Positions 25,343 to 43,608 of a stretch of DNA of 64,000 bases are shown piece after piece. The position numbers and the translations under genes were made by a program. The stretch is from positions 56,002 to 120,001 of the forward strand of contig CALAOT010000073.1 in assembly GCA_937889545.1 (NCBI GenBank), written 5' to 3'. Every line of letters starts with the position of its first letter. Within the stretch, counting starts at the first letter, position 1. This DNA is from an uncultured Opitutaceae bacterium. GTDB taxonomy: Bacteria; Verrucomicrobiota; Verrucomicrobiia; Opitutales; Opitutaceae. The notes under the pieces were generated by a model. That model worked only from the letters and a program-made list of their open reading frames with translations, was not told the origin of the DNA and did not search any database.

Positions 25343-26005
25343 GTGAAAATTGTAATCGTCGAAGACCACCTGATGATTCGCGATGTCGTGCGGAAGGTCT
25401 GCAGCTCCGAATTTGGCTATACCGTCGTCGGCGAGACGGATTCGGGCGTTCAGGCGGTGGAGATGATTCTGAAGCACAAGCCGGACGCCGTGGTCCTGGA
25501 CCTGTCGCTTCCCGACATGGACGGCTTCAACGTGGCGGACCGCGTGCTCAAGGCCATACCGAGCCTGCGGATCCTGATGCTGTCGTCGCACTGCGACGAC
25601 TACACCTTGTTCCGCGTGGAGAAGTCGGGCGTGCACGGCTTTATCGACAAGAACTCCAACACGATAGAGACCCTGCGGGACGCCCTTTCGGCGATCGCCG
25701 CCGGGCGCATCTATTTCTCGCAGGCGTTCCAGGCGGCCCGGATAGCCCGGCGGTCCGATCCGCGCTCCTTCATCAAGGTGCTGTCGGACTGGGAGCGGGC
25801 GATCCTCTCGCTCATCGGCCAGGGCCTCAATGACGACGAAATCGGCGAGCGCCTCAACCTTTCGCCACGCACGGTCCAGACCCACCGCAGCAACATCCTG
25901 CGCAAGCTCGACCTAAAGGGGACCCCCAAGCTGATCGCCTTCGCCGTCGAGCACGGCTTCACGCAGGTCCAGTCGAAGAGCGGATCGATTCCAGTTTATA
26001 CCTGA
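25343..26005 (+). CDS. NarL/FixJ (LuxR-type HTH) response regulator
   Basis: The track ORF starts at a TTG at 25307. I prefer the GTG at 25343 ([16 protein letters not shown]). It has the REC domain ([12 protein letters not shown]) and the C-terminal Lux[47 protein letters not shown]. Confidence 0.9.
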
Positions 26006-29000
26006 ACGCGGCGAATTCGCGCTCAAAGTCGTCGAAGAGCTGCTGGAGCTTGTCGGGATGGACCGTGGCGGCGCTGTTCTGGAGCTCGAGCGCCTTGCGG
26101 CTCAGCCGCTCGTATTTCACCACGCTGCAGTGCGACAGGAGCCGGTGCGCTATGCGGTGGATCTCCTCGCGCTCGCCCGTGGCGACGATCTTGCGGGCGC
26201 TTTCGCGGTCGCTCTCAAACGCGGCCAGGAACCGGTCGATCTGGCTGTTGAGGCCCTCCAGGGTCTCGTTGCCGAGGAAGCGCAGCATCTCCAGGTCGAT
26301 CTCCGTGGGCTGCTCCAGGGTGATCTTCTGGGAGCGGACCTCGACCGAGGCGGCGGTGCGCATGGGGCCCCCCAGGTCGCGCAACGCGTCCGCAATCTTC
26401 GCCGGGGTGATCGGCTTGGAGATGAACGCATCCATGCCGGCCTGGAGGCAGGCCTCCCTGTTGAAGTCGGCGGAATAGGCGGTGGTGGCGATGATGATGG
26501 TGCGCTGCGTGGATGGCTCGACCGCGCGGTAGCGCGACGCGACCTCCGTGCCGATGAGCCCGGGCAGGCTCCAGTCGAGGAACGCGACGTCGTAGTGGGT
26601 GGCCTTCAGTCGCTCCAGGGCGGCGAGCCCGTCGTTCACGACGTCCGACTGGATGTCGAGCTTGCGCAGCATGGCCTGCATGGCGATGACGTTGTATTCG
26701 ATGTCCTCGACTATCAGCGCGCGAAGCGGCGCTGAGCGGCGGGTGACGGGCGCCTCGGTCGTGCCTGCATCGCGCATGGTGACGAACGGGATCTCCGCCC
26801 AGAAGCAGGAACCCTCGCCGGGCTTGGATTCGACGCCGACCCGTCCCCCCATCTTGCCCGCGAGAAGCTTACAGACGGCGAGGCCGAGCCCCGTGCCTCG
26901 GATGTTGCCGGTCCGGGCCGACTCGAGCCGGGTGAACTTGGTGAAGAGGGTGGCGATCTCCGCCTCGGTCATGCCGGCGCCCTGGTCGCGAACGAAGAAC
27001 CGCACCCGGCCGTGGAAGCCGGGGGAGGCGCCGACCTCGATCGGCTTTCCCGCCCCGAACTTGACAGCGTTGGTGAGGAAGTTGAGCACGATCTGCTGCA
27101 CGCGGGCCGAGTCGCCCACGAGATGCTCCGGCACCCCGGGCGCGATTGAAATGGTGATGCCGGTCCCGTCGGCGTGCGCGTTCATGGTGACCATCGAGAC
27201 GCACTGCTCGAGGAGTACGCGAAGGGAGAACGGCGCGGAGCGCAGCTCCATCTTTCCCGCCTCGATCTTCGAGAAGTCGAGCACGTCGTCGACCAGGGTC
27301 GCCAGCAGGGTGGCACAGCTGTTTATGGAATCCGCCAGGTAGCGCTGGCGCTTGTCGAGCACCGTCTCCTCGAAGGCGAGCGCGAGGCCGAGTATGCCCG
27401 AGATAGGATTGCGTATCTCGTGGCTCATGTTGGCCAGGAACTCGGACTTTGCCTCGTTGGCCTTCTCGAGTTGCTCCGTCTTCTTCCGGACGAGCGCCTC
27501 CAGGCGGACATTCTGCCGGCGCAGGAACGCGAGGCGCCACTGGAAGGCGCCAAAAAAGGCCGCGACCACCAGCAGTCCGAAGCCGACGAGGGCGGGGACG
27601 GTCCTGTACCAGGGGGGCAGGACCGTGAACCTCCAGACCGTGGCCGGGCTCGCAAGGCCGGCGTCGTTGATCACGCGCGCGGCGAACTCGTACCTGCCGA
27701 TCTGGAGCCGGACAAGGTCGAGGTGATTGCTGTTCGTGGGCGCGGACCACTCGCTGCCGCCTCCGGAAAGCATGGTCTGGAAGCGGACGGATTCGCGCCG
27801 GCCAAACTCCGCCGCGGAAAAATCGAAGCTGACGGAATTCTTGGCGGCAGGGATCCTCGCATCCGCCGCCACGCTCGCGCGGAGGAGCGGCGCGCGCGGA
27901 TTGCCGACCGCCTCGAGCTGGCCGGGGGCGAGACGCAGCAGCCCCTCCGTGCCCCCTAGCCAGACGATGCCGCGGGAATCGACGAAGAGAGATTCGACTT
28001 CGCCTACCTGCGCCAAACCCGGGACGGCGAATGGCTCCCAGGAAGCCTCGCTACCGGCCCTGACCGACAATCGGCCTAGGATCGGGATTCTGGGGCCATC
28101 GGTGAAGGGGCCGTCGAACGCCACCCATACTGCGCCCGAGGATTCGCGATTGGAAATCGCGGCAGCTGGCGTCTTTGGAGCATTCTTAATGAGGACGGGT
28201 GCCTTCAGCGCCAACGGATACAGCTCCACCCCCTTGCCGGTAAATACCGCGATTGCATCGTTGATGCGGGCGACCGCCCCGCGCCCGGTGCCGGGCAGGC
28301 CATCGGTCGGCGTGACGCGAATTGGAGCCGTGGAAACGCCGGCGCCCTGGGGTATTTGGAACGCGCCGCGGGAGACGGTGCCGATCCAGATGTTTCCGTC
28401 TCCGTCCTCGGCCAGGGTCTCGGGCTTGTCGGGCAGATGCGCCAGCGCGTTTGCCTCCATTTCTCCTCCGGCAGCTGGGGAGAGCCGCTCGATGTCGAAG
28501 CCGTCGGCCATAAGAAAGCTGCTGGGACTCGCCAGGGATCGGCGGACAAGGAACACGTTCTTTTTTGAGGCGAAAATCTGGGTTGCCCGGCCTGCCTGAA
28601 TCCGATCGACCCGCCCGATGCCGGATGCGAAAATCGAGCCGTCGGGTTCGGACTCAAGGTCGGCATAGCGGGCTGTCAGGTCGGGGAGCGCTGCGAAACG
28701 CGCCGTTCCATCATTGCCTATGGGAAGGCCGAACACGCCCTCTTCGGTGGCCACGAGGATTTGGGATCCGGTCTGGGTCAAGCTGATGCAATGTTTACCG
28801 GTCAATCCTTGCCGCGCGTCGAAAAACGAAACGCCGGATTCGAGCGCGATTCGCGTAATGCCGTCAGCTGAGGTGGCCCACAGCGCGCCGTCGCGGGTAA
28901 CGAAGAGGGAAAACACACCGCGCGACGGCAAACCGTCGTCTGTCGAGATGACCCGTTTCAACGCTCCCGTGGGACCGACAATTGCAATGCCGCCGTTCAG

Positions 29001-29813
29001 CGTGCCGAGGCAAAGGTCTCCGCGCGGAAGCCGACAGGCGCAAAGGAGCACGTTCTTGCGGATGAACTCTTTGGCATCCGGAGCGAACTCGGAGATCTTC
29101 CCGTCGATGAGGCGGAACAGCCCGTTTGTGGTTCCGAGCAGCCAGCCTCCCTCGGCCTTTTCCATCCAGATGACCCCGGCGCTTCTCAGGATTTCCGGCG
29201 AAATGAACTCATGCAGTCCGTCCGCGTCGAGCGTCCGAACCCCCGAATCGGTGCGGCTTATAAAGATCCTTCCGTCCGCCTGCATCGCCTGCACTCGTGC
29301 CGTTCCCGGCGATCCATGGAGCCTGAAGGCCTTTCCGTCCCAGACCAGAACGGCACTTAAGGTTACGAATACGGCTCCTTCGCCGTTGGAAAACACCTTC
29401 CAGACCTCGCCCAAAGCCCTCGCCGCTTCCGGCAGGCTTTCCACAAGTGAATGATAGGCCGAGAGCCCCTGCTCAGTTCGATCAAAATAGCCGATCTCGT
29501 TCACGGCTCCAACCCAGAGACGCCCGTGAGGGCCGAGTGCCAAGGCGCGGACCGCGTAGCTGCCGGGAACGGGGTACCTGTTCCAGCGCTCTCCATCAAA
29601 GGTGAATACCTCGTCGCAGCCAAAATAGAGTATGCCGTTATCATCCTGCGTTGTCGCCCAGGTAAATCCCCCAATCCCCGTGTCCCGCGCTGTGTATCCC
29701 GTCACGATCAGGCGACCCTCCTCGCTTCGGACCGCGGGCGCCAGCGCCACGGCCAACCAGGCTAGGCATAGGACGGGTTTGAATTTTCGCACAGTTTTTA
29801 CGACTGGAAGCAA
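25959..29813 (-). CDS. large hybrid sensor kinase: periplasmic two-component-regulator beta-propeller repeats + Y_Y_Y, TM, HisKA, HATPase, REC, Hpt
   Basis: 1284 aa. It has a signal/TM N-terminus followed by about 700 aa of repeat-rich propeller-like sequence. The TM segment is [19 protein letters not shown], the H-box is [19 protein letters not shown] and the G-box is [18 protein letters not shown]. The REC domain is [12 protein letters not shown]...[10 protein letters not shown] and the Hpt helix is [15 protein letters not shown]. The start codon (TTG at 29813) is uncertain. Confidence 0.9.
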
Positions 29814-29955
29814 TCTGCAGGATAGCCTTCCCTAGCCCTTCCCTTGCAAGCAGAAGCGGCGCCTGACTACTGAAAAAAGCGTAATAAAGAACGTGAAAAT
29901 AGGCGAATTATTAATTCGGTTTCAGGGGCGGGGCGTAAGTAGTTTTGCGTACGAC

Positions 29956-30159
29956 ATGAAGACATTCAATCGCATGGCATTGGGCGTAGCATCCAGCGTG
30001 CTCTTATCAGCAGGCTTTTCCCGGGCGGCCCAACGGCTTGACCCGTTGACTAAGTTGGTTGGACGTTCGAGTTCTGGGGACAGCAGTGGCGAGGCGTCGG
30101 CGTGCTCCTGCGCATGTCAATGCACGATGCCCTGCATGCACGAAGCCAAGTCGGTCTAA
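29956..30159 (+). CDS. candidate RiPP precursor peptide (67 aa): signal-peptide-like leader plus Cys-rich C-terminal core
   Basis: MKTFNRMALGVASSVLLSAGFSRAAQRLDPLTKLVGRSSSGDSSGEASACSCACQCTMPCMHEAKSV. The track ORF begins at a GTG at 29893; the ATG at 29956 is preferred. This is the only ORF in an otherwise non-coding 386-nt gap. It is on the same strand as the YcaO-like gene and ends 40 nt upstream of it. No clear SD sequence is present. Confidence 0.45.
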   Translation: MKTFNRMALGVASSVLLSAGFSRAAQRLDPLTKLVGRSSSGDSSGEASACSCACQCTMPCMHEAKSV

Positions 30160-30199
30160 GAGGCCACGCCGAGAGAGAACTTCGAGAGGCGCCGTCGCT

Positions 30200-31093
30200 A
30201 TGCTTAGCGTCGCTGGATATCGCTATCGAAACGTACTGGAGTCCGAGGGGGGACCCGTTGCGCGGATATCCCTTCGCGAGTTCCCCGTATACGGCTGTCC
30301 GATGTATCAGGCGAATGCCTGGCTGTCGGACAGCCTGGTGTCGCACCAGAGGAATTTTGCCCTCTACAGCGATGCTGACGGCACGGGCGCCTCCGCCGTG
30401 CCGATGGTCGCGCGCCACATGGCGATTTCCGAGGCGATGGAGCGTTGGGCTTTCCGGGTGAAGGTGCGGGCTCCTGACCGGGAGCTGTACGGATTCGATA
30501 TCGACGAGTCGTCCAACGGGATGGCGGCGTTTCCGGGGCTCTTTCATACCGAGGCCCGGAAGCGGGCTCTTCTAGAGGCGGTGGAGCGCGCCAGCGTGAT
30601 CGCCTGGTGGGAGGGCGTGCTGGACGGCGAGGTTCGCAGCACCGACTGGCCGGGCATAAGCGCCCTCGTCCTGCCGAGTCCGATAGGGCTGGGCCTGACC
30701 GTCATCGCGTTTCGAGAGGTGAGGCCGGGCTGCTTCGCCTACGGCCACGGGGCGGCCAAGGACTTCTTCGGCGCGGCCGAGCGTTCGGTCATGGAGCTGG
30801 CGCGCAACGAATACGTGCTCGACCTGCGGCGCGTGTCCCAGGGACTTGCGGCTGAGAAGACGGCGTCGGACCTGTTTGAGCGGCGCTGCCTGTTCTTCTC
30901 GTCCTCGGAGGGGCACGCGATGTTCCAGGAGAGGATCCATCGCAAGATGACAGGGCCGCGCTTCCAGTCGGAGATCATCTGCGACACGGAGATTCCGGGG
31001 CCGTGGTCGGAGTATGCCTCGGTGTGGCGCGTCCTTATACGGCCTGCGACCACCGAGTTTCTGGCCAACACCGAGAGGTATTTCTTCTGGTGA
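30200..31093 (+). CDS. minimal YcaO-domain protein (about 297 aa)
   Basis: Track ORF 30059..31093; I prefer the ATG at 30200, with GAGAGG 10 nt upstream. Three YcaO-type motifs were recognised by eye: DADGTGASAVPMVARHMAISEAMERWAF, ESSNGMAAFPGLFHTEARKRALLEAVERASVIAWWEG and AYGHGAAKDFFGAAERSVMELARNEY. No HMM was run. Confidence 0.72.
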   Translation: MLSVAGYRYRNVLESEGGPVARISLREFPVYGCPMYQANAWLSDSLVSHQRNFALYSDADGTGASAVPMVARHMAISEAMERWAFRVKVRAPDRELYGFDIDESSNGMAAFPGLFHTEARKRALLEAVERASVIAWWEGVLDGEVRSTDWPGISALVLPSPIGLGLTVIAFREVRPGCFAYGHGAAKDFFGAAERSVMELARNEYVLDLRRVSQGLAAEKTASDLFERRCLFFSSSEGHAMFQERIHRKMTGPRFQSEIICDTEIPGPWSEYASVWRVLIRPATTEFLANTERYFFW

Positions 31094-31556: not shown

Positions 31557-31718
31557 GGCCCCTCGGGGTCGCTGGTGCCTTGCCTTCGGCGCGCCGGCGC
31601 AGGATAAACACGCGCGGCGGCGAACCGCCCGGGATTGAACGGATCTCGCGCCGGCGCGAAAGGGATGCGGCCCAACCTCCATCAGCTTCCTGTATCCGGA
31701 AACTCCTCCGGCTTCCGC

Positions 31719-34076
31719 ATGCCGGGAGCGGGACGCCCGCGCTGCAACGAGTGGATCCGGCTCGCGCCGGCGCTCATAGCCGCGATGGGCCTGGCCCATG
31801 GCAAAGCCCGGGCGGACCCGGGCGGCCCGGTCGTCGTGGGCGGCGATCTTGTCCGGGTGGAGGCCCAGGTTCGGGAGGGACGGCTGGTCGAGCGCTACCT
31901 GGCCCGCCGCGACGGGGAATGGATCCTGGTCGCCGCAGGTGAGGAAGGCGGCACGATGGGGCCGACCGCAGCGATCTCCGCCGACCATGAGGTCGAGGCG
32001 GGCGCGCTCGCAAGGATAGGGAAGGACGGAGCGGACCTGGTCGAGGAGTTCACGGCGGGCGGGCTGCGCGTGCTCCGGAGGGTGGCCGTCGACGGCGGTG
32101 GGCCGTGGGTCCATGTGACCACGCGGCTCAATCCGGGCCGCCCGGCGAAGCTCCATGCGTTTGTCGACCGGTTCAGATTCCCGCTGGCGCCGGACTGGTC
32201 CTTCGCCCCCTCGGTCCGCGGATTCGTCCCCGACGCGCAGTACAAGGCCCCGCTGATCCTTGTGCAGGCGGGTTGGGTCGCCTTCGGGATCGTCCCGGAC
32301 GTGGCCGGGCTCGACCGCCCGGCGTTGAAGCGGTGCAACCACGCCCTGGACCTGGACGTGCCGGGCGGCCCCGTCCTGAGCGTGGGCTTCGTGCCCGCCC
32401 GCCTCGCATACCATTCCGTCTATGCGCCGGACGAGGCGCGGTCGTGGACGGCGGAGGGCCCTCTCGGGAACGCCTACTACCTTCTGGTCACGGCCGCGGC
32501 CCGGCCCGGCGAGGCCTACCGCGAGGCCGTGCGCCTGCACTGGGCGCGCTTTGGCCGGGCGGGCCAGGCCCTGGCGGCCGCCCAGCAGGCGGCCACGGAC
32601 CCGCATTACCTAGGGCTGGCGCTCTGGGACGACTGGCGCAAGGCGGCCTGGCAGGTGCAGTCGCGGGCGGAATGGCTCACGGTGCCGCTTCCCGGCGGCT
32701 CGACGGGCGGCGGCGTGGCTACGCGCCGCTGGGGGCCGGGTCCCTCGGTGTACCTTTCGGCCTGGTTCAACACCCTGCGGACCTCGTATGGCATGGCCCT
32801 GTACGCGCGCCGGACGGGCGACGGGGAGCTGCTCGGGATGGCGAGGGAAACCGTGGACCTGGCGCTCCAGGCGCAGGGCAGCGGCGGGGCCTTCAAGTGC
32901 ATCGCGGTGCCGGGCGGCCCGGGCGGGGCGACCTTGTGGGCGGCCGGCGACGGAAGCGGGGACAGCACCAAGGAGGGTTTCCTGGGCTACGACATGAGCT
33001 GGACGGCCTACTGGCTCCTCAAGTGGAGGGAGGCCGGGCTGCCGGGCGGCGAGGCCGTCCTGCCGCGCTGCCGCGCCCTGGCCCGGTTCTTCGCGGACAG
33101 GCAGCGCGACGATGGGATGCTGCCCACGCGGTTCCGCGAGGACGGGACCGTGATCGGGGAGCTGTCGGAGACCGTCAAGGCCGAGACCGGCCCGGTCGCG
33201 CTCTTCCTCCTGGAGCTCCACTCCCAGGATCCGGATCCGAGGTGGCTCGCCGCGGCCCTCAAGGGGCTGGATTTCCTCGGGGAAAGCGTGGCGAAGACGC
33301 GCCAGTGGTATGACTTCGAGACGTTCTGGAGCTGCAGCCCGCGCAGGGCCGCCCTCGATCCGCGGACGCGGCAGTGGCCGGCCAACGACCTGGCCCTCGG
33401 GCAGGCAGTGTCCGCGTACCTGGCGGCGTTCCGCGCAACCCGCGACCGCGCCTATCTCGAGCGGGGCGAGCGGCTGCTCGACTACCTGCTGCTCTACCAG
33501 CAGTGCTGGACCAATCCCGTGCTGGAGAACCTGACGGGGCCGGAGATGCTCCTGGGCGGCTTCACGACCCAGAATTCCGATGCCGAATGGTCGGACGCCC
33601 GGCAGAGCCAGGTCGGGAACACCCTGCTGGACTACTACCGTGCGACGGGAAAGGCCGAGTACCTCCAACGGGGGATCGCCGCCCTTCGCGCGCAGTTTCC
33701 GGTGTCCCCGTCCGAGAACTGGGCCCACGAGGGCTACGGCCGCAAGGCCGGCGTGAGCAGCTTCCACTGGGGGACGGGCAGCGGGATGGCCGGGATCGAG
33801 ATGGAGGAGGAGTTCCTGCGCGACGGAGTCGTGGACGTGGCCTCGGGGACCGGGGTGGGGGTCAACGGGCTTGACGTGACGGAATGCTCCGTTTGGGCCG
33901 GCGAGATCCGGCTGCGGGTGGCGAGCCCCTTTGCCTGGCGGCGGGAAGCCGTCCTCGTATTCCGCCGCGCGGAGCCTTCACAGTCCTATCGCGTGGTGGT
34001 GAACGGCGCCGATCTGGGCGTCCGGCTCGGTGCCGACCTGGAAAAGGGCCTTCCCGTGACACCATGCGCGGAATGA
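31719..34076 (+). CDS. large uncharacterised, probably exported protein (helical-repeat / possible alpha-alpha-barrel region)
   Basis: Track ORF 31635..34076 (813 aa, TTG start). The ATG at 31719 gives MPGAGRPRCNEWIRLAPALIAAMGLAHGKARA, which is signal-like. I recognise no family motif. Codon usage and composition look like real coding sequence. Confidence 0.6.
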   Translation: MPGAGRPRCNEWIRLAPALIAAMGLAHGKARADPGGPVVVGGDLVRVEAQVREGRLVERYLARRDGEWILVAAGEEGGTMGPTAAISADHEVEAGALARIGKDGADLVEEFTAGGLRVLRRVAVDGGGPWVHVTTRLNPGRPAKLHAFVDRFRFPLAPDWSFAPSVRGFVPDAQYKAPLILVQAGWVAFGIVPDVAGLDRPALKRCNHALDLDVPGGPVLSVGFVPARLAYHSVYAPDEARSWTAEGPLGNAYYLLVTAAARPGEAYREAVRLHWARFGRAGQALAAAQQAATDPHYLGLALWDDWRKAAWQVQSRAEWLTVPLPGGSTGGGVATRRWGPGPSVYLSAWFNTLRTSYGMALYARRTGDGELLGMARETVDLALQAQGSGGAFKCIAVPGGPGGATLWAAGDGSGDSTKEGFLGYDMSWTAYWLLKWREAGLPGGEAVLPRCRALARFFADRQRDDGMLPTRFREDGTVIGELSETVKAETGPVALFLLELHSQDPDPRWLAAALKGLDFLGESVAKTRQWYDFETFWSCSPRRAALDPRTRQWPANDLALGQAVSAYLAAFRATRDRAYLERGERLLDYLLLYQQCWTNPVLENLTGPEMLLGGFTTQNSDAEWSDARQSQVGNTLLDYYRATGKAEYLQRGIAALRAQFPVSPSENWAHEGYGRKAGVSSFHWGTGSGMAGIEMEEEFLRDGVVDVASGTGVGVNGLDVTECSVWAGEIRLRVASPFAWRREAVLVFRRAEPSQSYRVVVNGADLGVRLGADLEKGLPVTPCAE

Positions 34077-34189
34077 GCCCGCCGATGAAAAGAAGGGTCC
34101 GACTGCGGCGCGTGACGGGACTGCGAAAGTCGGCGATCGCCCTCAAGCCTCCGGCAGCCTAATCCGTCCTTCTGAAACGCCATCCGCCA

Positions 34190-37100
34190 ATGAACCCAAG
34201 ACTCCCGATTCCACCTCCCGTTCCCCGCCGCATGCCGATTTCCCGGGTCGCGAATGCAGACGCATCCGATGCCGTCGGCTTCTCGGCCCGCCTGCGGGCC
34301 GCCCGGATGCTGCTCCCGGCGCTCCTGTGCGCCGCCTCGGCAACCGCGGCCGGCGACTTTACGCGCGGAGTCGGCGTCTACCCGGGCGATCCCGCTGCGT
34401 TCCAAGGGCCGACGATGGTCCCGGACGCCGCGGCCTACCGCAACCTCGCGCTGCACCGTCCGGCGACTGCGTCGAGCAACTACGACTACAGCCTGACAGC
34501 CCAGCTAATCACCGACGGGATCATCGACGGCCGGATGCCCCGCTGGCTCGTGGTGTCCTCGAGCGCGGAGGGCATCCTGCCCCGGCACGAGCGGGAGCAC
34601 CTGGTAGACAACTACGCGAGCACGGCAGTCAGCCTTCCGGCCGAGGGAGGATGGGTGCAGATCGAGCAGGCCGGGCGGCTCGACGTGCCCGATGTCGACC
34701 GCATCGAGGTGGTCGCCATGCCTCGCACGCAGGACGCGAAGCCGCAGCGGTGGACGTGCGTGGTCCGTGCCTCCGACGACGCCAGCGCCTGGAGGGAGCT
34801 GGGGCGCGCAGGCGGGGAGGAGAGCCTGGCTTCAAAGGCCTTCTGGATTCCGAAGGTCGTCAAGGCGGCGTTTGACGTGCCGGCGAACGGGAAGGCCCGT
34901 TTCTACCGCGTCCAGATCGACGCGCCCTCCGTGACCGGCTGGAGGGTCGCAAGCGTTGACACCTTCGCCCGGGGGCAGCGGGTGAACCTGGGCGGACCCC
35001 ACGATTTCACGAGCGCCTGGAAGAGCGCGGGCAACGCGGCCGAGTGGGTCCAGGTCGACCTGGGCGCGGTCTGCACCTTCGACCGCGTCGCCCTGCACTG
35101 GATCGAGCGCGCCGCCGCGGGCGCGATCGAGGCCTCCGACGACGGGGCGGGCTGGCGCTCTCTCGCGCCGCTCGTGGCCGCCGCCGACGACTACCGGCTG
35201 GCGAAGCCGGCGAGCGCCCGCTACGTGCGGGTGCGGATGGAGCGTCCCGTCGCGGCCGACGGCTACATCTTGAGCGAGATGGAGGTGTTCGGGCGCGGCG
35301 GCCTCGTGCCCCGTGCCCAGCCCGCCGCGGCTCCGCGTCCCGGCGAGCGCCAGGATCTCGTGCGCGGATCGTGGCGCATCCAGCGTGATTCGCTGGTGAC
35401 GCTGGGCGGCGAGGAGCTCTCCCGGCCCGGCGCGGACTGCCGCGGCTGGCTGCCGGCCACCGTGCCGGGATCGGTGCTGGTGAGCTACTGGAACGCGGGC
35501 GCGCTGCCGGATCCGAACTACGGCGACAACCAGCTGCAGATCTCGGATTCCTTCTTCTACTCGGATTTCTGGTATCGTGACGAGTTCGCGATCGCCGCCC
35601 CGCCTCCCGGCCGGAGGGTCTGGCTCAACTTCGACGGCATCAACTGGAAGGCCGACGTCTACCTCAACGGAACCCGCGTGGGCCGCATCGACGGCGCCTT
35701 CACGCGGGCGAGCTTCGACGTGACGGGCCTCGCCCGCCCCGGGGCGGCCAACGCCCTGGCGGTGCGGATTCACAAGCCGGACACGCCCGGTTCCGTTCGC
35801 GAAAAGACCGCCGACGAGACGGGAAGCAACGGCGGCGCGCTGGGCGCGGACAACCCGACCTTCCACGCCACCGCGGGCTGGGACTGGATCCCCAGCATCC
35901 GCGGCCGCAACATCGGCATCTGGTCCGACGTCTATGTGACCACGACGGGGCCGGTCGTCCTCGAGCACCCCTTTGTCTCCGCCAAACTGCCGCTGCCCGA
36001 CACGGGCAGCGCCGATGTGACGGTGGAGGTGGCGCTGCGCAACACCGAATCCAAACCCGTGAGCGGCGTGCTGAGCGGCCAGTTCGGGGACGTGCATTTC
36101 GAGCAACGCGTCGACGTGCCCGCGGCGGCATCCACCGTCGTGAGGCTCGACCCGTCGACGGTGGCCGGATTGCACCTGATGCACCCCAGGCTTTGGTGGC
36201 CCGCCGGCTACGGAGAGCCGAACCTCTACGACGTCCGCCTTGACTTCGACGCCGCCGGGGTCCGGTCCGATTCGAAGTCATTCCGCGCGGGGGTGAGGCA
36301 GTTCACGTATGCCGAGGAGGGCGGCGCCCTGAAGCTATTCGTCAACGGCCGCAGGTTCATCGGCCGCGGCGGCAACTGGGGGTTCTCGGAATCGAACCTT
36401 CTGTACCGCGACCGTGAATACGAGGCCGCAGTGCGCTACCACCGCGAGATGGGCTTCACGATGATCCGGAACTGGGTCGGCCAGGTCGGCGACGACGCCT
36501 TCTTCGAGGCCTGCGACCGCAACGGCGTCGTGGTCTGGCAGGATTTCTGGCTCGCCAACCCGCTGGATGGTCCGGACCCGGCCGACAACGCCATGTTTCT
36601 GCAGAACGCCGCCGACTTCATCGACCGCATCCGCAACCATCCCTCGGTGGGCCTCTACTGCGGCCGCAACGAGGGGGACCCGCCGCCGGTTCTGAACGCG
36701 GGCCTGCAGAAGCTCGTTGCGTCGCTTCACCCCGGCATCCGCTACATCGCGAACTCGGCCTTCGGGCTCGTCAGCGGGGGAGGGCCCTACCACCTGATGC
36801 CGATCAACTATTACTTTGACCAGCGCGCCACGACCAAGCTCCACAGCGAGCTCGGCATGCCGAACATCGTCACCCTGGACAGTCTGCGGCAGATGATGCC
36901 GGTGGCGGACCAGTGGCCGCAGGGGGCGGTCTGGGGCCTGCACGACTTCACGACCCGCGGCGCTCAGGGGGGAGGCGAGCTGCGAGCGACAATCGAAAAG
37001 TCCTACGGCGGCGCCGCGGACGCCGCGGAGTGGGTGGAACTCGCGCAGTTCACCAATTACGACGGCCATCGCGCGATGTTCGAGGCGCAGAGCAAGCACC

Positions 37101-37876
37101 GCATGGGGGTTCTCATGTGGATGAGCCACCCGTGCTGGCCCTCGTTTGTGTGGCAGACCTACGACTACTACCTCGAGCCGACCGCCGGCTACTTCGGGGC
37201 AAAGAAGGGCAGCGAACCCCTGCACGTCCAGTGGAACCCGCTGGACGGCACGGTCGAAGTCGTGAACTACAGCGGCGGCCACCGCCCCAGCCTCGAGGTC
37301 AGTGCCGCCATCCTGAACATGGACGGCTCGGCGCAGTGGGAGCAGTCCGCGACGATCGACAGCGCCGAGGACACGGTCATGTCGCCCATCACGCTCGCCT
37401 TCCCCGGGGCCGGGCTGTCGCCCATCCACTTTGTGCGCCTGAGGCTCACCGAGGGCGGCAAGACAGTGTCGGAAAACACCTACCTGCGCAGTCTCACGAC
37501 CTACAAAGTCCCCGGATTCTCGTTCGGGCCCTTCCACATCCCCGACTTCCCGGCGTTTGATTTTCACGCGATCCGCGCGCTGCCGAAGGCGCCCGTGCGC
37601 AGCGTCACCGCGGCCGAGCGCCACGGCAGCCAATGGGTCTTGTCGACGGAGCTCGAAAACGCCTCAAAGACCCCGGCGCTGATGGTCCGCCTGAAGGCCG
37701 TGCGCGAGAAGAGCGGCGACCGCATCCTGCCGGCCCTGTACGACGACAACTACATCACGCTGATGCCCGGCGAAAGGCGCCGCCTGCGAACCGAGTTGGA
37801 GGAGGCAGACACGCGGGGCGAACGCCCTCGGATCGTGGTCGAGGGCTTCAATCTCGGCCGAGAAGGCGGGCGGTAG
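34190..37876 (+). CDS. glycoside hydrolase family 2 with N-terminal F5/8 type C (discoidin) module(s)
   Basis: 1228 aa. A signal-like segment, RAARMLLPALLCAASATAAG, follows the N-terminus. Discoidin-like segments are NLALHRPATASSNYDYSLTAQLITDG and WVQVDLGAVCTFDRVALHW...ARYVRVRMERP...ILSEMEVFG. The GH2 core is WLPATVPGSVLVSYWNAGALPDPNYGDN...GFTMIRNWVGQVGDDAFFEACDRNGVVVWQDFWLANP. The exact start is uncertain (34190, 34232 or 34307). Confidence 0.84.
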   Translation: MNPRLPIPPPVPRRMPISRVANADASDAVGFSARLRAARMLLPALLCAASATAAGDFTRGVGVYPGDPAAFQGPTMVPDAAAYRNLALHRPATASSNYDYSLTAQLITDGIIDGRMPRWLVVSSSAEGILPRHEREHLVDNYASTAVSLPAEGGWVQIEQAGRLDVPDVDRIEVVAMPRTQDAKPQRWTCVVRASDDASAWRELGRAGGEESLASKAFWIPKVVKAAFDVPANGKARFYRVQIDAPSVTGWRVASVDTFARGQRVNLGGPHDFTSAWKSAGNAAEWVQVDLGAVCTFDRVALHWIERAAAGAIEASDDGAGWRSLAPLVAAADDYRLAKPASARYVRVRMERPVAADGYILSEMEVFGRGGLVPRAQPAAAPRPGERQDLVRGSWRIQRDSLVTLGGEELSRPGADCRGWLPATVPGSVLVSYWNAGALPDPNYGDNQLQISDSFFYSDFWYRDEFAIAAPPPGRRVWLNFDGINWKADVYLNGTRVGRIDGAFTRASFDVTGLARPGAANALAVRIHKPDTPGSVREKTADETGSNGGALGADNPTFHATAGWDWIPSIRGRNIGIWSDVYVTTTGPVVLEHPFVSAKLPLPDTGSADVTVEVALRNTESKPVSGVLSGQFGDVHFEQRVDVPAAASTVVRLDPSTVAGLHLMHPRLWWPAGYGEPNLYDVRLDFDAAGVRSDSKSFRAGVRQFTYAEEGGALKLFVNGRRFIGRGGNWGFSESNLLYRDREYEAAVRYHREMGFTMIRNWVGQVGDDAFFEACDRNGVVVWQDFWLANPLDGPDPADNAMFLQNAADFIDRIRNHPSVGLYCGRNEGDPPPVLNAGLQKLVASLHPGIRYIANSAFGLVSGGGPYHLMPINYYFDQRATTKLHSELGMPNIVTLDSLRQMMPVADQWPQGAVWGLHDFTTRGAQGGGELRATIEKSYGGAADAAEWVELAQFTNYDGHRAMFEAQSKHRMGVLMWMSHPCWPSFVWQTYDYYLEPTAGYFGAKKGSEPLHVQWNPLDGTVEVVNYSGGHRPSLEVSAAILNMDGSAQWEQSATIDSAEDTVMSPITLAFPGAGLSPIHFVRLRLTEGGKTVSENTYLRSLTTYKVPGFSFGPFHIPDFPAFDFHAIRALPKAPVRSVTAAERHGSQWVLSTELENASKTPALMVRLKAVREKSGDRILPALYDDNYITLMPGERRRLRTELEEADTRGERPRIVVEGFNLGREGGR

Positions 37877-37950
37877 CGCGCCGCCCTGGGGAAGCCCTCC
37901 TCGAAGCCGTTGGAAAAGTGCATATTAGCGGCAGTCTTTGCTTGACCAGG

Positions 37951-37985
37951 GTGGGTTAAAATGGGTTGAAATGGGGTATTGTGGG
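37951..37985 (+). promoter_or_regulatory. four direct (G/A)TGGG repeats with exact 10-bp phasing; candidate MraZ operator in the dcw promoter
   Basis: gTGGGttaaa aTGGGttgaa aTGGGgtatt gTGGGacggg, with TGGG at 37952, 37962, 37972 and 37982. The last repeat ends 23 nt upstream of the mraZ ATG. A TTGACC hexamer lies at 37942-47. Confidence 0.6.
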
Positions 37986-38008
37986 ACGGGTCACCGCCCG
38001 CTCACCCC

Positions 38009-38461
38009 ATGGAGCATCCCGGCAAAGCATTTTTCACGGGCCTTTTCAGGCACACCCTCGACGACAAGGGTCGCGTCACGATCCCTTCGGCATGGCGTGC
38101 CGCGCATGAAGACGGGGACGTCTTCCTGGCGACACCGCACCCCGATGGCTACGTGGCCGTGCTGCCCCCGTCCGAGGTCGAGAAGCTCCATGCCAAGATC
38201 GCGCAGATGGCGCTCAGCGACGGGGCCGGGCAGGACTTCGCGTCGCGGTTCTTCGCGCAGACGCAGTCATTCTCGTTCGACAAGCAGGGACGCGTCGGCC
38301 TCACCGCCGATTTGCTGGAGCATGCGGGGATCGCAAAGGACGCGGTCCTCGTCGGTTCCCTGACCAAGTTCAACCTGTATTCGCCGTCCCGATGGCAAAA
38401 GGTCGAGGCGCGCACCTCGGGCGAAAACTTTGGCGACATCATGCGCCGCCTCGGAATCTGA
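38009..38461 (+). CDS. mraZ: division/cell wall cluster transcriptional regulator MraZ
   Basis: The ATG at 38009 gives MEHPGKAFFTGLFRHTLDDKGRVTIPSAWR...SFDKQGRVGLTADLLEHAGI. The two SpoVT/AbrB-like DxxGR repeats are present. The protein is 150 aa. Confidence 0.93.
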   Translation: MEHPGKAFFTGLFRHTLDDKGRVTIPSAWRAAHEDGDVFLATPHPDGYVAVLPPSEVEKLHAKIAQMALSDGAGQDFASRFFAQTQSFSFDKQGRVGLTADLLEHAGIAKDAVLVGSLTKFNLYSPSRWQKVEARTSGENFGDIMRRLGI

Positions 38462-38665
38462 ACATGCGAAACATTGCGAGAATCTCCGCGACCGGAACGC
38501 TTCTGGAAAAGGCTGCCTCAATCACGGTTTCACGCACGTTTCCCGGATGGGTCGACGCCGCCGGATACGCGGCCGCCCCCTCGGTCGTCATGCCGCGCGT
38601 TCGCGACAATCTCGTGCTTCGGCTTGTCGCAGGCAGGCGGCAGGAGCGAGCCAAGGACCCCCTCC

Positions 38666-39622
38666 ATGCGACCGGCGCTACTTGAATTCGTTGCCGCGAG
38701 CATGATCCCCGGTCACCAGCCCGTCCTCCTTCGCGAGGTGCTTGGGCTACTTGCACCCGGTGCCGGCGGAAAGTACCTGGACTGCACGTTCGGGGGAGGG
38801 GGGCATTCCCGGGCCATCCTCGAGGCCGCGCGAGACGTCCGGGTCGTGGCGCTCGACCGGGACCCCGGGGCGGCTTCGCGCGGGGAGACGTTGGCCGCCG
38901 AGTTTCCATGTCGTTTGACGCTGATTGACAGTGACTTCGGTAAACTTGGAAGCATCGCGGACTCGGATTTCGACGGCGCCCTCTTCGACTTTGGCCTTTC
39001 CTCGTTCCAGCTTGACGATCCCGACCGCGGCTTCTCATTCCGCGACGACGGCCGTGCGGACATGAGGATGGACCGCCGGGCGGGCGTGCCCGCCGCGCGC
39101 TGGCTCGAGACGGCTACGGAGGAAATGCTGGTTCGGGCCATCCGCGATTTCGGCGAGGAGACCCATTGGCGCCGTGTCGTCCGCGCCCTTGTAGCCGCTA
39201 GAGGCAGCGGCTCGCTCGAGAGGACCGCCTCGCTCGCCGGCGTCATCTGCGGGGCGATACCGGCGCGCGACCGGCGCGCCTCGCGGATCCATCCCGCCAC
39301 GCGCTCCTTCCAGGGGATACGGATCGCGGTAAACGACGAGCTTGGCGCGATCGAGCGCGCGCTGCCGGCTGCGTTCGCCAAGCTCCGGCCGAACGGCGTC
39401 CTGTGCGCGATCAGCTTTCACTCGCTCGAGGACCGCCCTGTGAAGCATTTTTTTCGCCGGATGTGCGGCCAGCCGGAAAGCTCGGACGACGCGACCCCGC
39501 AGGATCTGCGGATTCGCCTTGCCGAGCCGCTCACCCGCCGCCCCGTCACCCCGTCGGACGCCGAGACCGCGGACAATCCCCGCAGCAGGTCGGCCAAGCT
39601 GCGTGCCATAAGGAAATTGTGA
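38666..39622 (+). CDS. rsmH: 16S rRNA (cytosine1402-N4)-methyltransferase
   Basis: The track ORF starts at 38474. Homology starts at HQPVLLREVLGLLAPGAGGKYLDCTFGGGGHSRAILEA, followed by FDFGLSSFQLDDPDRGFSF and ISFHSLEDRPVK. The start is the ATG at 38666 or 38702. Confidence 0.92.
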   Translation: MRPALLEFVAASMIPGHQPVLLREVLGLLAPGAGGKYLDCTFGGGGHSRAILEAARDVRVVALDRDPGAASRGETLAAEFPCRLTLIDSDFGKLGSIADSDFDGALFDFGLSSFQLDDPDRGFSFRDDGRADMRMDRRAGVPAARWLETATEEMLVRAIRDFGEETHWRRVVRALVAARGSGSLERTASLAGVICGAIPARDRRASRIHPATRSFQGIRIAVNDELGAIERALPAAFAKLRPNGVLCAISFHSLEDRPVKHFFRRMCGQPESSDDATPQDLRIRLAEPLTRRPVTPSDAETADNPRSRSAKLRAIRKL

Positions 39623-40020
39623 TGCGCACGGGAAAAAAGGCGGGCGCCGATGCATTTGTGAGCCAGTTCCTGGTTTATGCGCTGGTTGCGATCTGCTGCA
39701 GCGCATCCATCGGCCTGGGCACGGTCTGGATGCGCCACCAGATCTCGGTCGCAGCCAACGCAAACAAGGTCCTCGAGGCCAAGATCGCCGGCCTCGAGCG
39801 TCGCATTGAGGAAACGGACGCCGCCATCTCGGCGGAGCAGGATCCCGCGGTGCTTAACCGGCGCAATTCCGAATGGCGGCTGGGGCTGGTGCAGCCTGGG
39901 GAAACGCAGGTGCGCCGCGTCTCCGAGGACCCGGTCACGCGCCTCGCGGCGCTGCACAACCGCACGCTCTTTGGGGAGCGACCGGCGACCGTGAGCCTGC
40001 GCGTCGCCCTCGTGCGCTGA
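39622..40020 (+). CDS. ftsL: FtsL-like cell division protein (positional call)
   Basis: 132 aa. The ATG overlaps the rsmH stop by 1 nt (TGATG). It has a single N-terminal TM helix (FLVYALVAICCSASIGLGTVW) followed by a coiled-coil-like KVLEAKIAGLERRIEETDAAI. It sits between rsmH and ftsI, as ftsL does in canonical dcw clusters. Confidence 0.6.
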   Translation: MRTGKKAGADAFVSQFLVYALVAICCSASIGLGTVWMRHQISVAANANKVLEAKIAGLERRIEETDAAISAEQDPAVLNRRNSEWRLGLVQPGETQVRRVSEDPVTRLAALHNRTLFGERPATVSLRVALVR

Positions 40021-40036
40021 CGCAAGCTGGAACCCC

Positions 40037-42016
40037 ATGTCGAAGGGCTTCACCAGCAACCACCGGATCGCCCTTCTAGCGGGCCTCGTCCTGGCGATGT
40101 TCGCAGGGCTCGAAGCGCGGCTGGTGTGGCTTCACATTGTCGACAGGGAGGATCTTCTGCGGTCGGTCGGCGAGGCCCGCCGGCAGCTGATCGTGGATTA
40201 CTCGCGGCGCGGCGACATTCTCGATGCCAACGGGGCGCTCCTCGCCACGAGCCATTCCGTCGTCGTATTGGGGGTCGATCCCCAGTCCGTGCGGTCCGAG
40301 GACTTGGCCAAGCTGCCTCGGTTGGCCGCGTTGCTTGGGATGCCGCTTGCGGACCTGGAAAGGGTCTGCACGACGAAGGAGCGTCCGGCCGCGGCCGGCA
40401 CCGGCCCGCAGGCGCCGGCACCCTCCGCCGGGATGGTGATCAATTTCGGCCGCGCGGCTGCGGCCGAGGCGGCCCACGACGCCGAGGCCGCCAGAAGGGA
40501 CGACACGGAGCTCGACGAGCCGGACAGGGAGGGCAACCGGCCCATCCGCTGGGCCAAGCTGAGCGACCAGGTGCCGGAGTCCGTCTACGACCAGGTTTCG
40601 AAGCTCGGCGTCCGGGGTGTGTACGGTAGCCGGGTCTACCGGCGCGACTACCCGCACAACGACATGGCCGCCCACATCATCGGATACGTGGACCGCGAGG
40701 AGCGGCCGGTCGCGGGGATTGAGCACTTCGCCGATTTCTACCTCCGGGGCGAAAACGGGTGGCTCGAGTCGGAACGGGACGGGAGGAGCCGGGAACTCGC
40801 CCAGTTCCGCACGCGGGAGGTGCCCGCGAGCGACGGTTTCAGCGTGTCCCTGACGATTGACGCCACCATCCAGCGCATGGCCGAGGACGAGCTGGCGACG
40901 GTCGCCGCCCAGTACGAGCCGGGAAAGGCGACCATCATCGTTAGCGATCCGCAGACGGGCTTCATCCTCGCCCTCGCCAACTACCCGTCCTTCGACCTGA
41001 ACCGCTACAACGAGCTGCCCCGCGCGGATCAGGGAAGGATGCGCAACATCGCCGTGGCCGACGAGTACGAGCCGGGCTCGGTGTTCAAGATCGTCGCGGT
41101 CTCCGGCGCTCTCAACGACGGCCTGGTAACGACGCGCTCCGAGTTCGACTGCACTCTTGAGAAGATCGACTACAACGGCATCACGCGAAGCCTCCCCCGG
41201 GAGGACGGGTCGGATCAGTTCAACCGCCCGCTCACCGTCGCCGAGATCATAGAGAAGTCCTCCAACAAGGGGGCTGCGCAGCTTGCGATGGCGCTTGGCG
41301 ACCGCAGGTTCTACGACTACGCGCGCGCGTTCGGGTTCGGGCAGAGGACGGGCTTCCCCGTCGGCGGCGAGGTCGCCGGGAAGCTGAAGCCCCCGGAGAA
41401 ATGGGACAGCCTCACCATCACCCGGATGCCCATGGGACAGTCGGTCACCGCGACGGCGCTGCAGATGCAGCAGGCGATGGGGGTCATTGCGAACGGCGGG
41501 ATGCTGCTCAAGCCCCAGATCATCCACAAGGTTCGCGACGCCCAGGGCGAGCCCGTCTACACCTTTCTCCCCGTTGAGGTGCGCAGGGTGATCTCGGAGC
41601 AGACGGCCCTGACGATGGCCCGCCTCCTGACGGCCGTCGTGTCGTCGGAAGGCACCGCCCCCGAGGCCGCCATCCCGGGATTCGACGTCGCGGGGAAGAC
41701 GGGTACGGCCAACAAGCTTGTGCCCGTCGAGATCGCGCCCGGGGTGACGGTGCCGCGCTACTCCGACCGGCACCACGTTGCGTCGTTCATCGGGTTCTTC
41801 CCCGCAGTCATTCGCCATCCGGGCGACAGGCAGGTGGCGATCGCGGTGATCGTCGACGACGCGGACGCCCGCTGTCCCGGCGGGGTAGCTTATGGGCACA
41901 TGGTCGCGGCACCCGTCTTCAAGCGCCTGGGGGAGCGGCTGATACCGTATCGCAACATCCGCCCCCAGATCGACAACGAGGCCCCGCGCGCCCTCGCAAT
42001 GGGAGGTGCCCGGTGA
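40037..42016 (+). CDS. ftsI: peptidoglycan D,D-transpeptidase FtsI (class B PBP)
   Basis: 659 aa. It has an N-terminal TM anchor and the motifs SxxK (GSVFKIV), SxN (KSSNKG) and KTG (GKTGTA). Confidence 0.92.
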   Translation: MSKGFTSNHRIALLAGLVLAMFAGLEARLVWLHIVDREDLLRSVGEARRQLIVDYSRRGDILDANGALLATSHSVVVLGVDPQSVRSEDLAKLPRLAALLGMPLADLERVCTTKERPAAAGTGPQAPAPSAGMVINFGRAAAAEAAHDAEAARRDDTELDEPDREGNRPIRWAKLSDQVPESVYDQVSKLGVRGVYGSRVYRRDYPHNDMAAHIIGYVDREERPVAGIEHFADFYLRGENGWLESERDGRSRELAQFRTREVPASDGFSVSLTIDATIQRMAEDELATVAAQYEPGKATIIVSDPQTGFILALANYPSFDLNRYNELPRADQGRMRNIAVADEYEPGSVFKIVAVSGALNDGLVTTRSEFDCTLEKIDYNGITRSLPREDGSDQFNRPLTVAEIIEKSSNKGAAQLAMALGDRRFYDYARAFGFGQRTGFPVGGEVAGKLKPPEKWDSLTITRMPMGQSVTATALQMQQAMGVIANGGMLLKPQIIHKVRDAQGEPVYTFLPVEVRRVISEQTALTMARLLTAVVSSEGTAPEAAIPGFDVAGKTGTANKLVPVEIAPGVTVPRYSDRHHVASFIGFFPAVIRHPGDRQVAIAVIVDDADARCPGGVAYGHMVAAPVFKRLGERLIPYRNIRPQIDNEAPRALAMGGAR

Positions 42017-42117
42017 TCGGATATCTCGTTCAAGACCATGCGCTGGTGCGCGCATTCCGCAACCGGCCCTTGCACCGGCGCACCGGCGAATACCTTGAGT
42101 TCAACCGCGCTTTCAAA

Positions 42118-43608
42118 ATGGCACCCATACTCTCCGACTACATCAGCGAAGACGAAATCCTCGCCGCAAAGGGAAGGCTGGATTGTCCGATCTCGGGGCT
42201 CGTGATGGACAGCCGGAGGGTCGTCCCCGGAAACCTCTTCTTCGCGCTGCCCGGACGCCGCGCGGACGGGGTCTCGTTCATCGACGAGGCCGTCAGCAGG
42301 GGCGCCTCGGCCGTGGTCGCCCAGAGGATGCCCTCTCATCCGCCGGTCAGGGTAACGTTTGTCCAGGTGGCCGACGCCCGCGCCGTGCTCGCACGCGTCG
42401 CGCAGCGGTACTACAAGTTTCCCGACCGGGACCTTTCGGTGGTCGGCGTCACCGGCACGAACGGGAAGACGACCGTCAGCTACCTCATCCGGCATCTCCT
42501 GAACGGGAGCGAGCGGGTCGGGCTCCTGGGGACGATCAGCTACGATCTCGGGGTGCGGACCGTTCCATCCTTCCGGACGACGCCCGAGTCGATCGACATT
42601 TTCGGGATGCTCGCCCAGATGCGCGACGCCGGATGCCGGCACGCGGTCATGGAGGTGAGCTCCCACGGGATCGCGCAGCAGCGCGTGCTCGGGCTCCGCT
42701 TCGGGGTCGCTGTATTCACAAATCTGACACAGGACCACCTTGATTTTCACGGGACGCTCGAGTCCTATTTCGACGTGAAAACCCGGCTCTTCACGGGAAG
42801 CCTGGGACCCGTGCCGGGCGTGGCCGTCGTCAACCTAGACGACGCCCATGGCGAAAGGCTCGCGGCGAAGATCGCCGCCGAGGTGCCGTCGGCGCGGCTT
42901 GTCACCTTCGGGGAGAATCCGATCGCGGACGTCCGGGCTCAGGACGTCGTCCTGAACTTCAGGGACACGGCGTTCAGGCTGGCGTGGCCGGGGGGGGCGG
43001 CCTCCGTCGCGTCCCCGCTGATCGGGCGCTACAATGTGTCCAACGTGCTCGCGGCGGTCGCGGCGGCGTGGGCCCTCGGGCGCGACCCGGCGGTCTTCAG
43101 CGAGAGGATCCGGATCTTCAAGGGCGTTCCGGGGCGCATGGAGAGGATCGAGGAGGGGCAGGCGTTCAATGTGCTGGTCGACTATGCGCACACCGACGAC
43201 GCGCTGCGAAACGCGCTCGGGATGCTCAGGGCGATCACGCCGGGCCGCCTGCTTGTCGTCTTCGGCTGCGGCGGGAACCGGGACCGGACAAAGCGGCCCC
43301 GGATGGTAAGGGCCGTCCAGGAGGTCGCCGACCACGCGTTCGCCACCGCCGACAATCCTCGCGGGGAGCAGTTGGAGAAGATCTTTGCCGACATGAGGGA
43401 GGGCGTGGTCGACCCGTCGAAGGTCACCTGGGTAGACGACCGCCGGCGCGCCATAAGCCTCGCCCTCGACAGCGCCAGGGCGGGCGACAGCCTGCTGATT
43501 GCGGGCAAGGGCCACGAGGGCTACCAGGAATTTGCCGACACCGTAATCCCGTTCGACGACCGGCAGGTCGTGCGCGAACTGATCGCCGTCAAGACGCTGC
43601 GAAGCTGA
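42118..43608 (+). CDS. murE: UDP-N-acetylmuramoyl-L-alanyl-D-glutamate--2,6-diaminopimelate ligase
   Basis: The track ORF starts at a GTG at 42013 (GTGA overlap with ftsI). The usual MurE N-terminus fits the ATG at 42118 (MAPILSDY...ISGLVMDSRRVVPGNLFFALPG). Also present are the P-loop VVGVTGTNGKTT, and DNPR. Confidence 0.92.
   Translation: MAPILSDYISEDEILAAKGRLDCPISGLVMDSRRVVPGNLFFALPGRRADGVSFIDEAVSRGASAVVAQRMPSHPPVRVTFVQVADARAVLARVAQRYYKFPDRDLSVVGVTGTNGKTTVSYLIRHLLNGSERVGLLGTISYDLGVRTVPSFRTTPESIDIFGMLAQMRDAGCRHAVMEVSSHGIAQQRVLGLRFGVAVFTNLTQDHLDFHGTLESYFDVKTRLFTGSLGPVPGVAVVNLDDAHGERLAAKIAAEVPSARLVTFGENPIADVRAQDVVLNFRDTAFRLAWPGGAASVASPLIGRYNVSNVLAAVAAAWALGRDPAVFSERIRIFKGVPGRMERIEEGQAFNVLVDYAHTDDALRNALGMLRAITPGRLLVVFGCGGNRDRTKRPRMVRAVQEVADHAFATADNPRGEQLEKIFADMREGVVDPSKVTWVDDRRRAISLALDSARAGDSLLIAGKGHEGYQEFADTVIPFDDRQVVRELIAVKTLRS

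Follow-up and report, generated by a model that had tools for sequence, protein, structure and literature searches.

A small peptide gene next to a stand-alone YcaO gene

The 64-kb window analysed here (contig C73, positions 56002-120001; GC content about 64-71%) comes from a soil metagenome, and the genome of the uncultured Opitutaceae bacterium to which it belongs is 4.33 Mb in length and 92% complete. Two genes on its plus strand are the subject of this report, one (29956-30159) encoding a 67-aa peptide, P0001, and the other (30200-31093) encoding a 297-aa protein, P0003, with a YcaO-type domain. The first-pass annotation, made from the nucleotide sequence without database searches, proposed that this pair is a two-gene module for a peptide made on ribosomes and then modified after translation (RiPP) that matches no named class, and the arrangement that it described, a small open reading frame (ORF) followed 40 nt downstream by a YcaO gene on the same strand, is what lies at these positions.

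The ATG of the peptide ORF is at 29956, and the frame runs to a TAA stop codon (30157-30159). A GTG at 29893 is in frame with it and would lengthen the product to 88 aa, but alignment of the relatives places the start at the methionine of MKT (29956), the start that is conserved in the family. An in-frame 'SFAYD' stretch that precedes this methionine (window 29893-29955) is also kept in several loci, L001 and L002 among them, and its conservation probably reflects DNA of the 5' untranslated region or promoter and not a longer protein. The 40-nt spacer between the two genes (30160-30199) contains a Shine-Dalgarno-like GAGAGG (30185-30190), and the YcaO ORF begins with an ATG. This spacing, which is 10-45 nt in most relatives, suggests that the peptide and YcaO genes are co-transcribed. 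On the other side, a 143-nt intergenic region (29813-29955) separates the peptide gene from a gene on the minus strand for a hybrid sensor histidine kinase (HK) of 1284 aa (25959-29813), and both divergent promoters are likely to sit within it.

Conservation of the peptide-YcaO pair

A tblastn search with the 67-aa peptide found it in the same position upstream of YcaO in 20 of 26 loci that carry homologues of the YcaO gene, and the five loci of this set without the peptide belong to distant subclades or have the YcaO gene at or close to their beginning. All ten genus-relative loci have the peptide upstream of YcaO, and more than 40 loci have it directly 5' of a YcaO homologue whose identity to the YcaO of the window runs from 100% down to 43%. 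Because both the peptide and its position are kept in dozens of independent genomes, the small ORF is taken to be a real, conserved precursor and not a chance reading frame. Among the more distant YcaOs, those of L037 (52% identity; core DCSAPC), L038 (45%; DCGYTC) and L043 (43%; DCGMPCG) also have a precursor upstream, its leader built in the same way and its core of the form C-x-x-x-C or C-x-x-P-C. On an NCBI assembly (L046-L048), a precursor that lacks cysteine but keeps a DPL motif lies upstream of a YcaO of 33% identity. The module is present, too, in the cultured type strain Opitutus terrae PB90-1 (CP001032.1), as a 72-aa precursor ending in ...GCAVPCVLNV and a YcaO, P0079. The tight co-occurrence of precursor and enzyme thus spans more than 40 loci and at least two orders, and possibly extends to other phyla.

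The pairing was also approached from the side of the peptide, by searching 301 genomes of the order with a hidden Markov model (HMM) built from the precursor alignment. Matches were obtained in 19 of these genomes, belonging to several families, and every precursor found in this way has a YcaO homologue of 35-100% identity 10-250 bp downstream of it, on the strand that encodes the precursor; a precursor without a YcaO did not occur among the matches. Judged on the sequences, this reverse search is the strongest evidence for the pairing. The co-occurrence of a small ORF with YcaO homologues, which the first-pass annotation had put forward as a test of its proposal, is therefore seen, in the form of synteny kept across the order and outside it. 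Within the genome of the window itself, a search for further copies of the precursor returned only chance matches, leaving a single copy. One related locus, L019, has two tandem precursor ORFs upstream of its YcaO.

Leader and core of the precursor

The N-terminal 33 residues are conserved in the precursor family, with a mean column conservation of 0.65. In P0001 they begin with a segment resembling a Sec signal peptide (residues 1-25; 29956-30030), as judged by hydropathy, charge and conservation, in which an n-region MKTFNR with a charge of +2 is followed by the hydrophobic h-region MALGVASSVLLSAGF and by small residues at positions -3 and -1. The same design is present in all members of the family, whose n-regions have a charge of +2 or +3 and whose hydrophobic stretch of 15 aa has a mean Kyte-Doolittle value of 1.6-2.6. 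After the signal-like segment comes a family motif, AA(Q/E)RLDP(L/V)T, which in the window reads AAQRLDPLT (residues 24-32; 30028-30051) and recurs in peptides from across the order; its DPL is kept even in the distant precursor without cysteine, where the L046 peptide reads 'IDPLS'. The leader thus looks like a candidate Sec signal peptide joined to a leader motif that the family conserves, and AAQRLDPLT is a candidate recognition element.

The core that follows (residues 46-67; 30091-30159) is hypervariable, with a mean top-residue frequency of 0.36 compared with 0.65 in the leader. In P0001 the C-terminus reads ...GEASACSCACQCTMPCMHEAKSV, with cysteines at positions 50, 52, 54, 56 and 60. 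Five cysteines within 11 residues, four of them at i/i+2 spacing, had been noted in the first-pass annotation, and this count stands; the accompanying statement that they are interleaved with Ser and Thr holds only in part, the intervening residues being Ser, Ala and Gln. As a hallmark, the Cys-rich run applies to the present member but not to the family, several of whose precursors have one or two cysteines, and it was discarded as a family-defining feature because only C-x-x-P-C is kept across the alignment. Three positions of the core are conserved in the aligned precursor sequences, namely Cys56 (95%), Pro59 (80%) and Cys60 (89%), so that the C-T-M-P-C of P0001 (residues 56-60; 30121-30135) is its version of the family C-x-x-P-C, which is usually followed by an aromatic residue. 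From its conservation within a variable core, C-x-x-P-C is likely to be the site of modification.

In several relatives the core is present in tandem, as two copies of CVAPCFIL (L005), two of PALPCARS (L009), three of SSLGCAQLPCYHRDF (L022 and L024) or three of DTCTWPCE (L062), and C-x-x-P-C is repeated two to three times in the multicore precursors of L005, L009, L022, L024, L051 and L062. A conserved leader, a variable core with an invariant motif, and multicore variants make up the standard signature of RiPP precursors, and on comparison of the aligned sequences the peptide family displays this pattern, with one invariant motif in its core. Searches of 20 precursors and of their alignment against NCBIfam and Pfam gave no family match, only chance matches of single members with E>0.02. 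One of these was to Phr_nterm, a family of Rap phosphatase inhibitor pheromones, which matched one member at E=0.077; it was set aside as a chance match and is not used as evidence.

A compact YcaO domain

The three stretches that had been recognised by eye as YcaO-type in the 297-aa protein, GTGAS...SEAMERWAF, SSNGMAAF...LLEAVERASVIAWW and GHGAA...AERSVMELA, are all present in P0003 exactly as given. P0003 matches the Pfam family PF02624 (YcaO) with E=7.2e-7 and 29.3 bits, above the gathering threshold of 25.7, and scores 16.9 bits against TIGR03604, the model for the SagD-type enzymes of thiazole/oxazole-modified microcin (TOMM) pathways, which is below its cut-off of 219. Homologues are numerous, with 974 in a database clustered at 90% and 427 representatives at 50% clustering, nearly all of the latter 285-315 aa in length, and P0003 is for that reason regarded as a member of a compact YcaO family and not as a truncated gene. 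One of the homologues bears the name 'YcaO-like family protein [Opitutus terrae]'.

P0003 was modelled with AlphaFold2 from an alignment of 71 sequences, and the model has a pLDDT of 95.4 and a pTM of 0.92. Structural matches (Foldseek/VIA) span the full protein, residues 1-297, the closest being McbD of the microcin B17 synthetase (VIA Z 17.1), the Methanopyrus kandleri YcaO (16.3) and LynD (15.9), followed by MusD (7u58; 14.8), the M. jannaschii YcaO (14.6) and E. coli YcaO (12.6). P0003, at 297 aa, is shorter than the solved YcaOs that it matches, which have 361-783 aa. Compared as a sequence with the sequences of solved structures, P0003 alone gave no match, and a family profile, which aligns the SEAMERW and EAVERASVIAWW motifs with the E-x-x-E-R stretches of TruD and MusD, matched these only weakly; the fold relationship is therefore taken from structure. 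Across 71 homologues of 30-100% identity, S77, E78, E81, R82, E126, E129 and R130 are invariant or nearly so. The Pfam match above gathering, the full-length structural match and the E-x-x-E-R motifs together place P0003 in the YcaO superfamily, as the first-pass annotation had proposed, and P0003 is a complete, compact YcaO domain with conserved motifs of the ATP-binding type.

A divergent sensor kinase and the absence of partner genes

The hybrid HK encoded divergently from the module consists, by Pfam, of a periplasmic Reg_prop beta-propeller followed by HisKA, HATPase, REC and Hpt domains; there is in addition a weak match to a Vgb_lyase-like beta-propeller (E=0.0046). Homologues with 22-66% identity to the kinase of the window occupy the same place in 15 of 25 loci, and in most of the loci that lack it the contig ends before the HK position. 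A hybrid HK also stands next to the module in L038, L046 and O. terrae (L068). Two features are thus added to the earlier description of the locus: the Sec-signal-like leader, and a divergent hybrid HK that usually forms part of the conserved unit. In a subclade whose precursors have a single-Cys core (L013, L014, L015, L019 and L021), a second histidine kinase of about 625 aa is encoded on the plus strand 3' of the YcaO gene. The pair with the Cys-less precursor in L046/L047 (GCA_050331815.1) is flanked by a hybrid HK of the Y_Y_Y/Reg_prop type, a TonB-dependent receptor and a response regulator of the LuxR type.

Across the 25 loci, the only genes conserved with YcaO are the precursor gene and that of the divergent hybrid HK. 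Neither the neighbours in the window nor the genes conserved across these loci include an E1-like/ocin-ThiF partner with a RiPP recognition element (RRE), a flavin mononucleotide (FMN)-dependent dehydrogenase, a protease or a transporter. No TfuA (PF07812) was found in the genome of the window, and none of the genes conserved around the module is for sulfur transfer.

Comparison with known YcaO systems

Precedents for YcaO enzymes that act alone exist in BotC and BotCD of the bottromycin pathway and in the YcaOs of methanogens. In Streptomyces, BotC and BotCD are YcaO-domain enzymes that, like P0003, have no E1/RRE partner; they modify a ribosomal precursor, with BotCD forming a macroamidine and BotC a thiazoline from cysteine (summarised in part in PMC8442711). 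The bottromycin precursor, however, is actinobacterial and carries a C-terminal follower, whereas the present peptide has an N-terminal leader, and none of the methyltransferases, P450, peptidases or amidohydrolase of the bottromycin clusters is found near the module. The methanogen enzymes (M. kandleri, 6ci7; M. jannaschii, 6peu) are likewise stand-alone, similar in their compact size and structurally close, but they act with TfuA on the protein McrA, in which they form thioglycine, whereas the bacterial genome described here has no TfuA and has a dedicated small precursor gene beside its YcaO.

The streptamidine (ami) system offers a parallel in layout, being an amidine-containing RiPP from a widespread family of precursors encoded next to stand-alone YcaOs and having a small, variable core (PMC8442711), both of which are features of the present module. 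It differs in being actinobacterial or from Firmicutes, in its motif A/B precursors, which have neither cores rich in Ser, Thr and Cys nor signal-peptide leaders, and in a gene cluster that conserves FecBCDE iron transporters along with a hydrolase, a flavin dehydrogenase and ABC transporters (PMC8442711), where the module has only the peptide and YcaO genes and the divergent HK. The cyclodehydratases of TOMM and linear azol(in)e-containing peptide (LAP) pathways (McbBCD, LynD, TruD) include the closest structures and share with the present system the ExxER motifs and Cys-containing cores open to cyclodehydration. Unlike P0003, which has 297 aa and no partner that was found, they need an E1-like/ocin-ThiF partner with an RRE and often a dehydrogenase, and their YcaOs are of the TIGR03604 type and about 390-780 aa long. 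MusD (7u58) of the muscoride pathway shares the YcaO fold, but its gene is part of a cyanobactin cluster that also encodes PatA-like precursors and further enzymes, and its cleavage is at a C-terminal recognition sequence; the module has none of these.

Since the defining partners or gene sets are missing and the precursor architecture differs, the module does not belong with the TOMM/LAP, thioamitide/TfuA, bottromycin or streptamidine systems. It is best described as resembling the stand-alone YcaO systems, BotC/BotCD and the methanogen enzymes, while lying outside every named class, and no published description of this peptide-YcaO family was found in the literature searched. The first-pass proposal of a RiPP-like module of two genes outside the named classes is upheld by the synteny, by the YcaO fold, and by the failure to match known precursor families or characterised stand-alone YcaO systems.

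A proposed pathway and its alternatives

On this evidence, the small ORF and the compact stand-alone YcaO probably constitute an undescribed RiPP family in which the precursor is modified by the YcaO. We infer that the enzyme acts on the peptide and that it needs no RRE partner to bind the conserved leader. The precursor would be made with its N-terminal leader, consisting of the Sec-signal-like segment and then AA(Q/E)RLDP(L/V)T, and this leader would be bound directly by the compact YcaO, no E1/ocin-ThiF protein or RRE taking part. With ATP and Mg2+, the enzyme would then activate amides of the backbone within the C-x-x-P-C core, and the most likely outcome would be cyclodehydration of one or both cysteines to thiazolines, with Cys60 closing onto the carbonyl of Pro59 and Cys56 onto that of the preceding residue. 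Thiazoline formation at the core cysteines is a guess, offered as the simplest reading of the chemistry, and its main alternative would be a macrocyclic amidine. The Sec-signal-like leader suggests that the product is exported, and the modified peptide would probably leave the cytoplasm through Sec and be freed by signal peptidase and proteases encoded elsewhere, which in multicore precursors would release each core. Conservation of the divergent hybrid HK suggests that transcription of the operon is under its control, probably exerted from the shared intergenic region, and the kinase might also sense the exported product.

Several observations weigh against this reading. Heterocyclisation by TOMM-type YcaOs normally needs an E1/RRE partner, and the present YcaO has none; a Sec-signal-like leader is, moreover, unusual for a RiPP that is modified in the cytoplasm. 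Because some relatives hold one cysteine (the precursors of L013, L014, L021 and L058-L060) or none (L046), cyclisation of cysteine cannot by itself account for the family as a whole. Some YcaO subfamilies (Bdellovibrionota-type loci L025/L026 and L039/L045) occur without the peptide. Finally, metatranscriptome RNA contigs (Logan) cover the YcaO gene, a point in favour of the reading, and the 5' region of the HK gene, but none spans the peptide ORF, which proves nothing either way.

It could be argued that the peptide is secreted unmodified, as a Cys-rich pheromone or a metal- or disulfide-binding peptide, and that the YcaO modifies some other target, such as a protein or, as E. coli YcaO does, a tRNA- or ribosome-related substrate. 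The Sec signal-peptide features of the leader, the periplasmic sensor domain of the adjacent HK, and the capacity of C-x-x-P-C to bind metal or to form a disulfide would all suit this explanation. It is nonetheless unlikely, because a core that is hypervariable around one invariant motif, and is repeated in tandem, fits the relationship of an enzyme to its substrate, and because in the 301 genomes the peptide never occurs without the YcaO, the two genes lying 10-45 nt apart and being likely co-transcribed. An explanation that keeps the peptide as substrate but changes the reaction sees in the YcaO a MusD-like, ATP-dependent peptidase, which cuts off the leader or excises the repeated cores instead of, or besides, heterocyclisation. 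ATP-dependent cleavage of RiPP precursors is documented YcaO chemistry (PMC10885120), MusD is among the structural matches of the P0003 model, and multicore precursors need processing for which no protease gene was found nearby. The best structural matches, however, are cyclodehydratases and a methanogen YcaO and not MusD, the conserved C-x-x-P-C resembles a modification site more than a cleavage site, and cleavage of the MusD type acts at a C-terminal recognition sequence, all of which make a peptidase role distinctly unlikely.

That the YcaO forms a thioamide, or modifies the backbone in some other way, with a sulfur donor whose gene lies elsewhere, in the manner of TfuA-dependent systems, is very improbable. 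YcaO-dependent thioamidation is known chemistry, and the thioglycine-forming Methanopyrus YcaO is a top structural match, but the missing TfuA and the want of a conserved sulfur-transfer gene in the neighbourhood speak against it. That the small ORF is an artefact has next to no likelihood: DNA of high GC content (about 66%) does yield many spurious ORFs, but this one is conserved at the protein level, with its start and leader kept, it recurs at one and the same place in more than 40 independent loci, within the order and outside it, and it varies as a coding sequence does.

If, as favoured here, the YcaO modifies the peptide, the exported product could be sensed by the periplasmic beta-propeller of the HK, which would control the operon and perhaps neighbouring genes, and the whole would amount to cell-to-cell signalling in diderm Verrucomicrobia. 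This extension is speculative and has a low probability; were it true, the circuit would run on a RiPP pheromone and would differ from the known Gram-positive systems of the Phr or autoinducing peptide (AIP) kind. YcaO-dependent RiPPs include antibiotics (microcin B17, klebsazolicin and bottromycin) and unusual backbone chemistry. What would be new in the present family is the combination of a leader of the signal-peptide type with a C-x-x-P-C core, a compact YcaO (about 297 aa) free of partners, and a frequent coupling to a two-component sensor. The family is widespread and comes from an under-explored phylum, Verrucomicrobiota, and its cultured carrier, O. terrae, makes both the chemistry and the role directly testable. 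The questions that it opens are what allows a stand-alone YcaO to recognise a leader when it has no RRE, what becomes of the Cys-x-x-Pro-Cys, and whether the product is an antibiotic or a signal.

Neighbouring genes and divergent YcaO loci

Downstream (3') of the module, over window 31635-43608, lie genes for two glycoside hydrolase family 2 proteins of 813 aa and 1228 aa and, after them, a dcw cluster with MraZ at 37979, MraW at 38474, a penicillin-binding protein (PBP) transpeptidase at 40037 and a Mur ligase at 42013. Past the HK stop, an R-rich ORF of 83 aa on the minus strand (25711-25962) forms a cluster with counterparts from several loci; it was judged likely to be a shadow ORF of high-GC DNA and lies outside the module.

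The YcaOs without a neighbouring peptide (L025, L026, L039 and L045) have 32-40% identity to that of the window and include some from metagenome-assembled genomes of Bdellovibrionales. They follow a gene whose product has the conserved C-terminus 'FMF(L/R)SKEGI..LPD' and which in L039 encodes an SBP_bac_5 oligopeptide-binding protein, and these peptide-less loci of the SBP_bac_5 type are probably a different functional branch.
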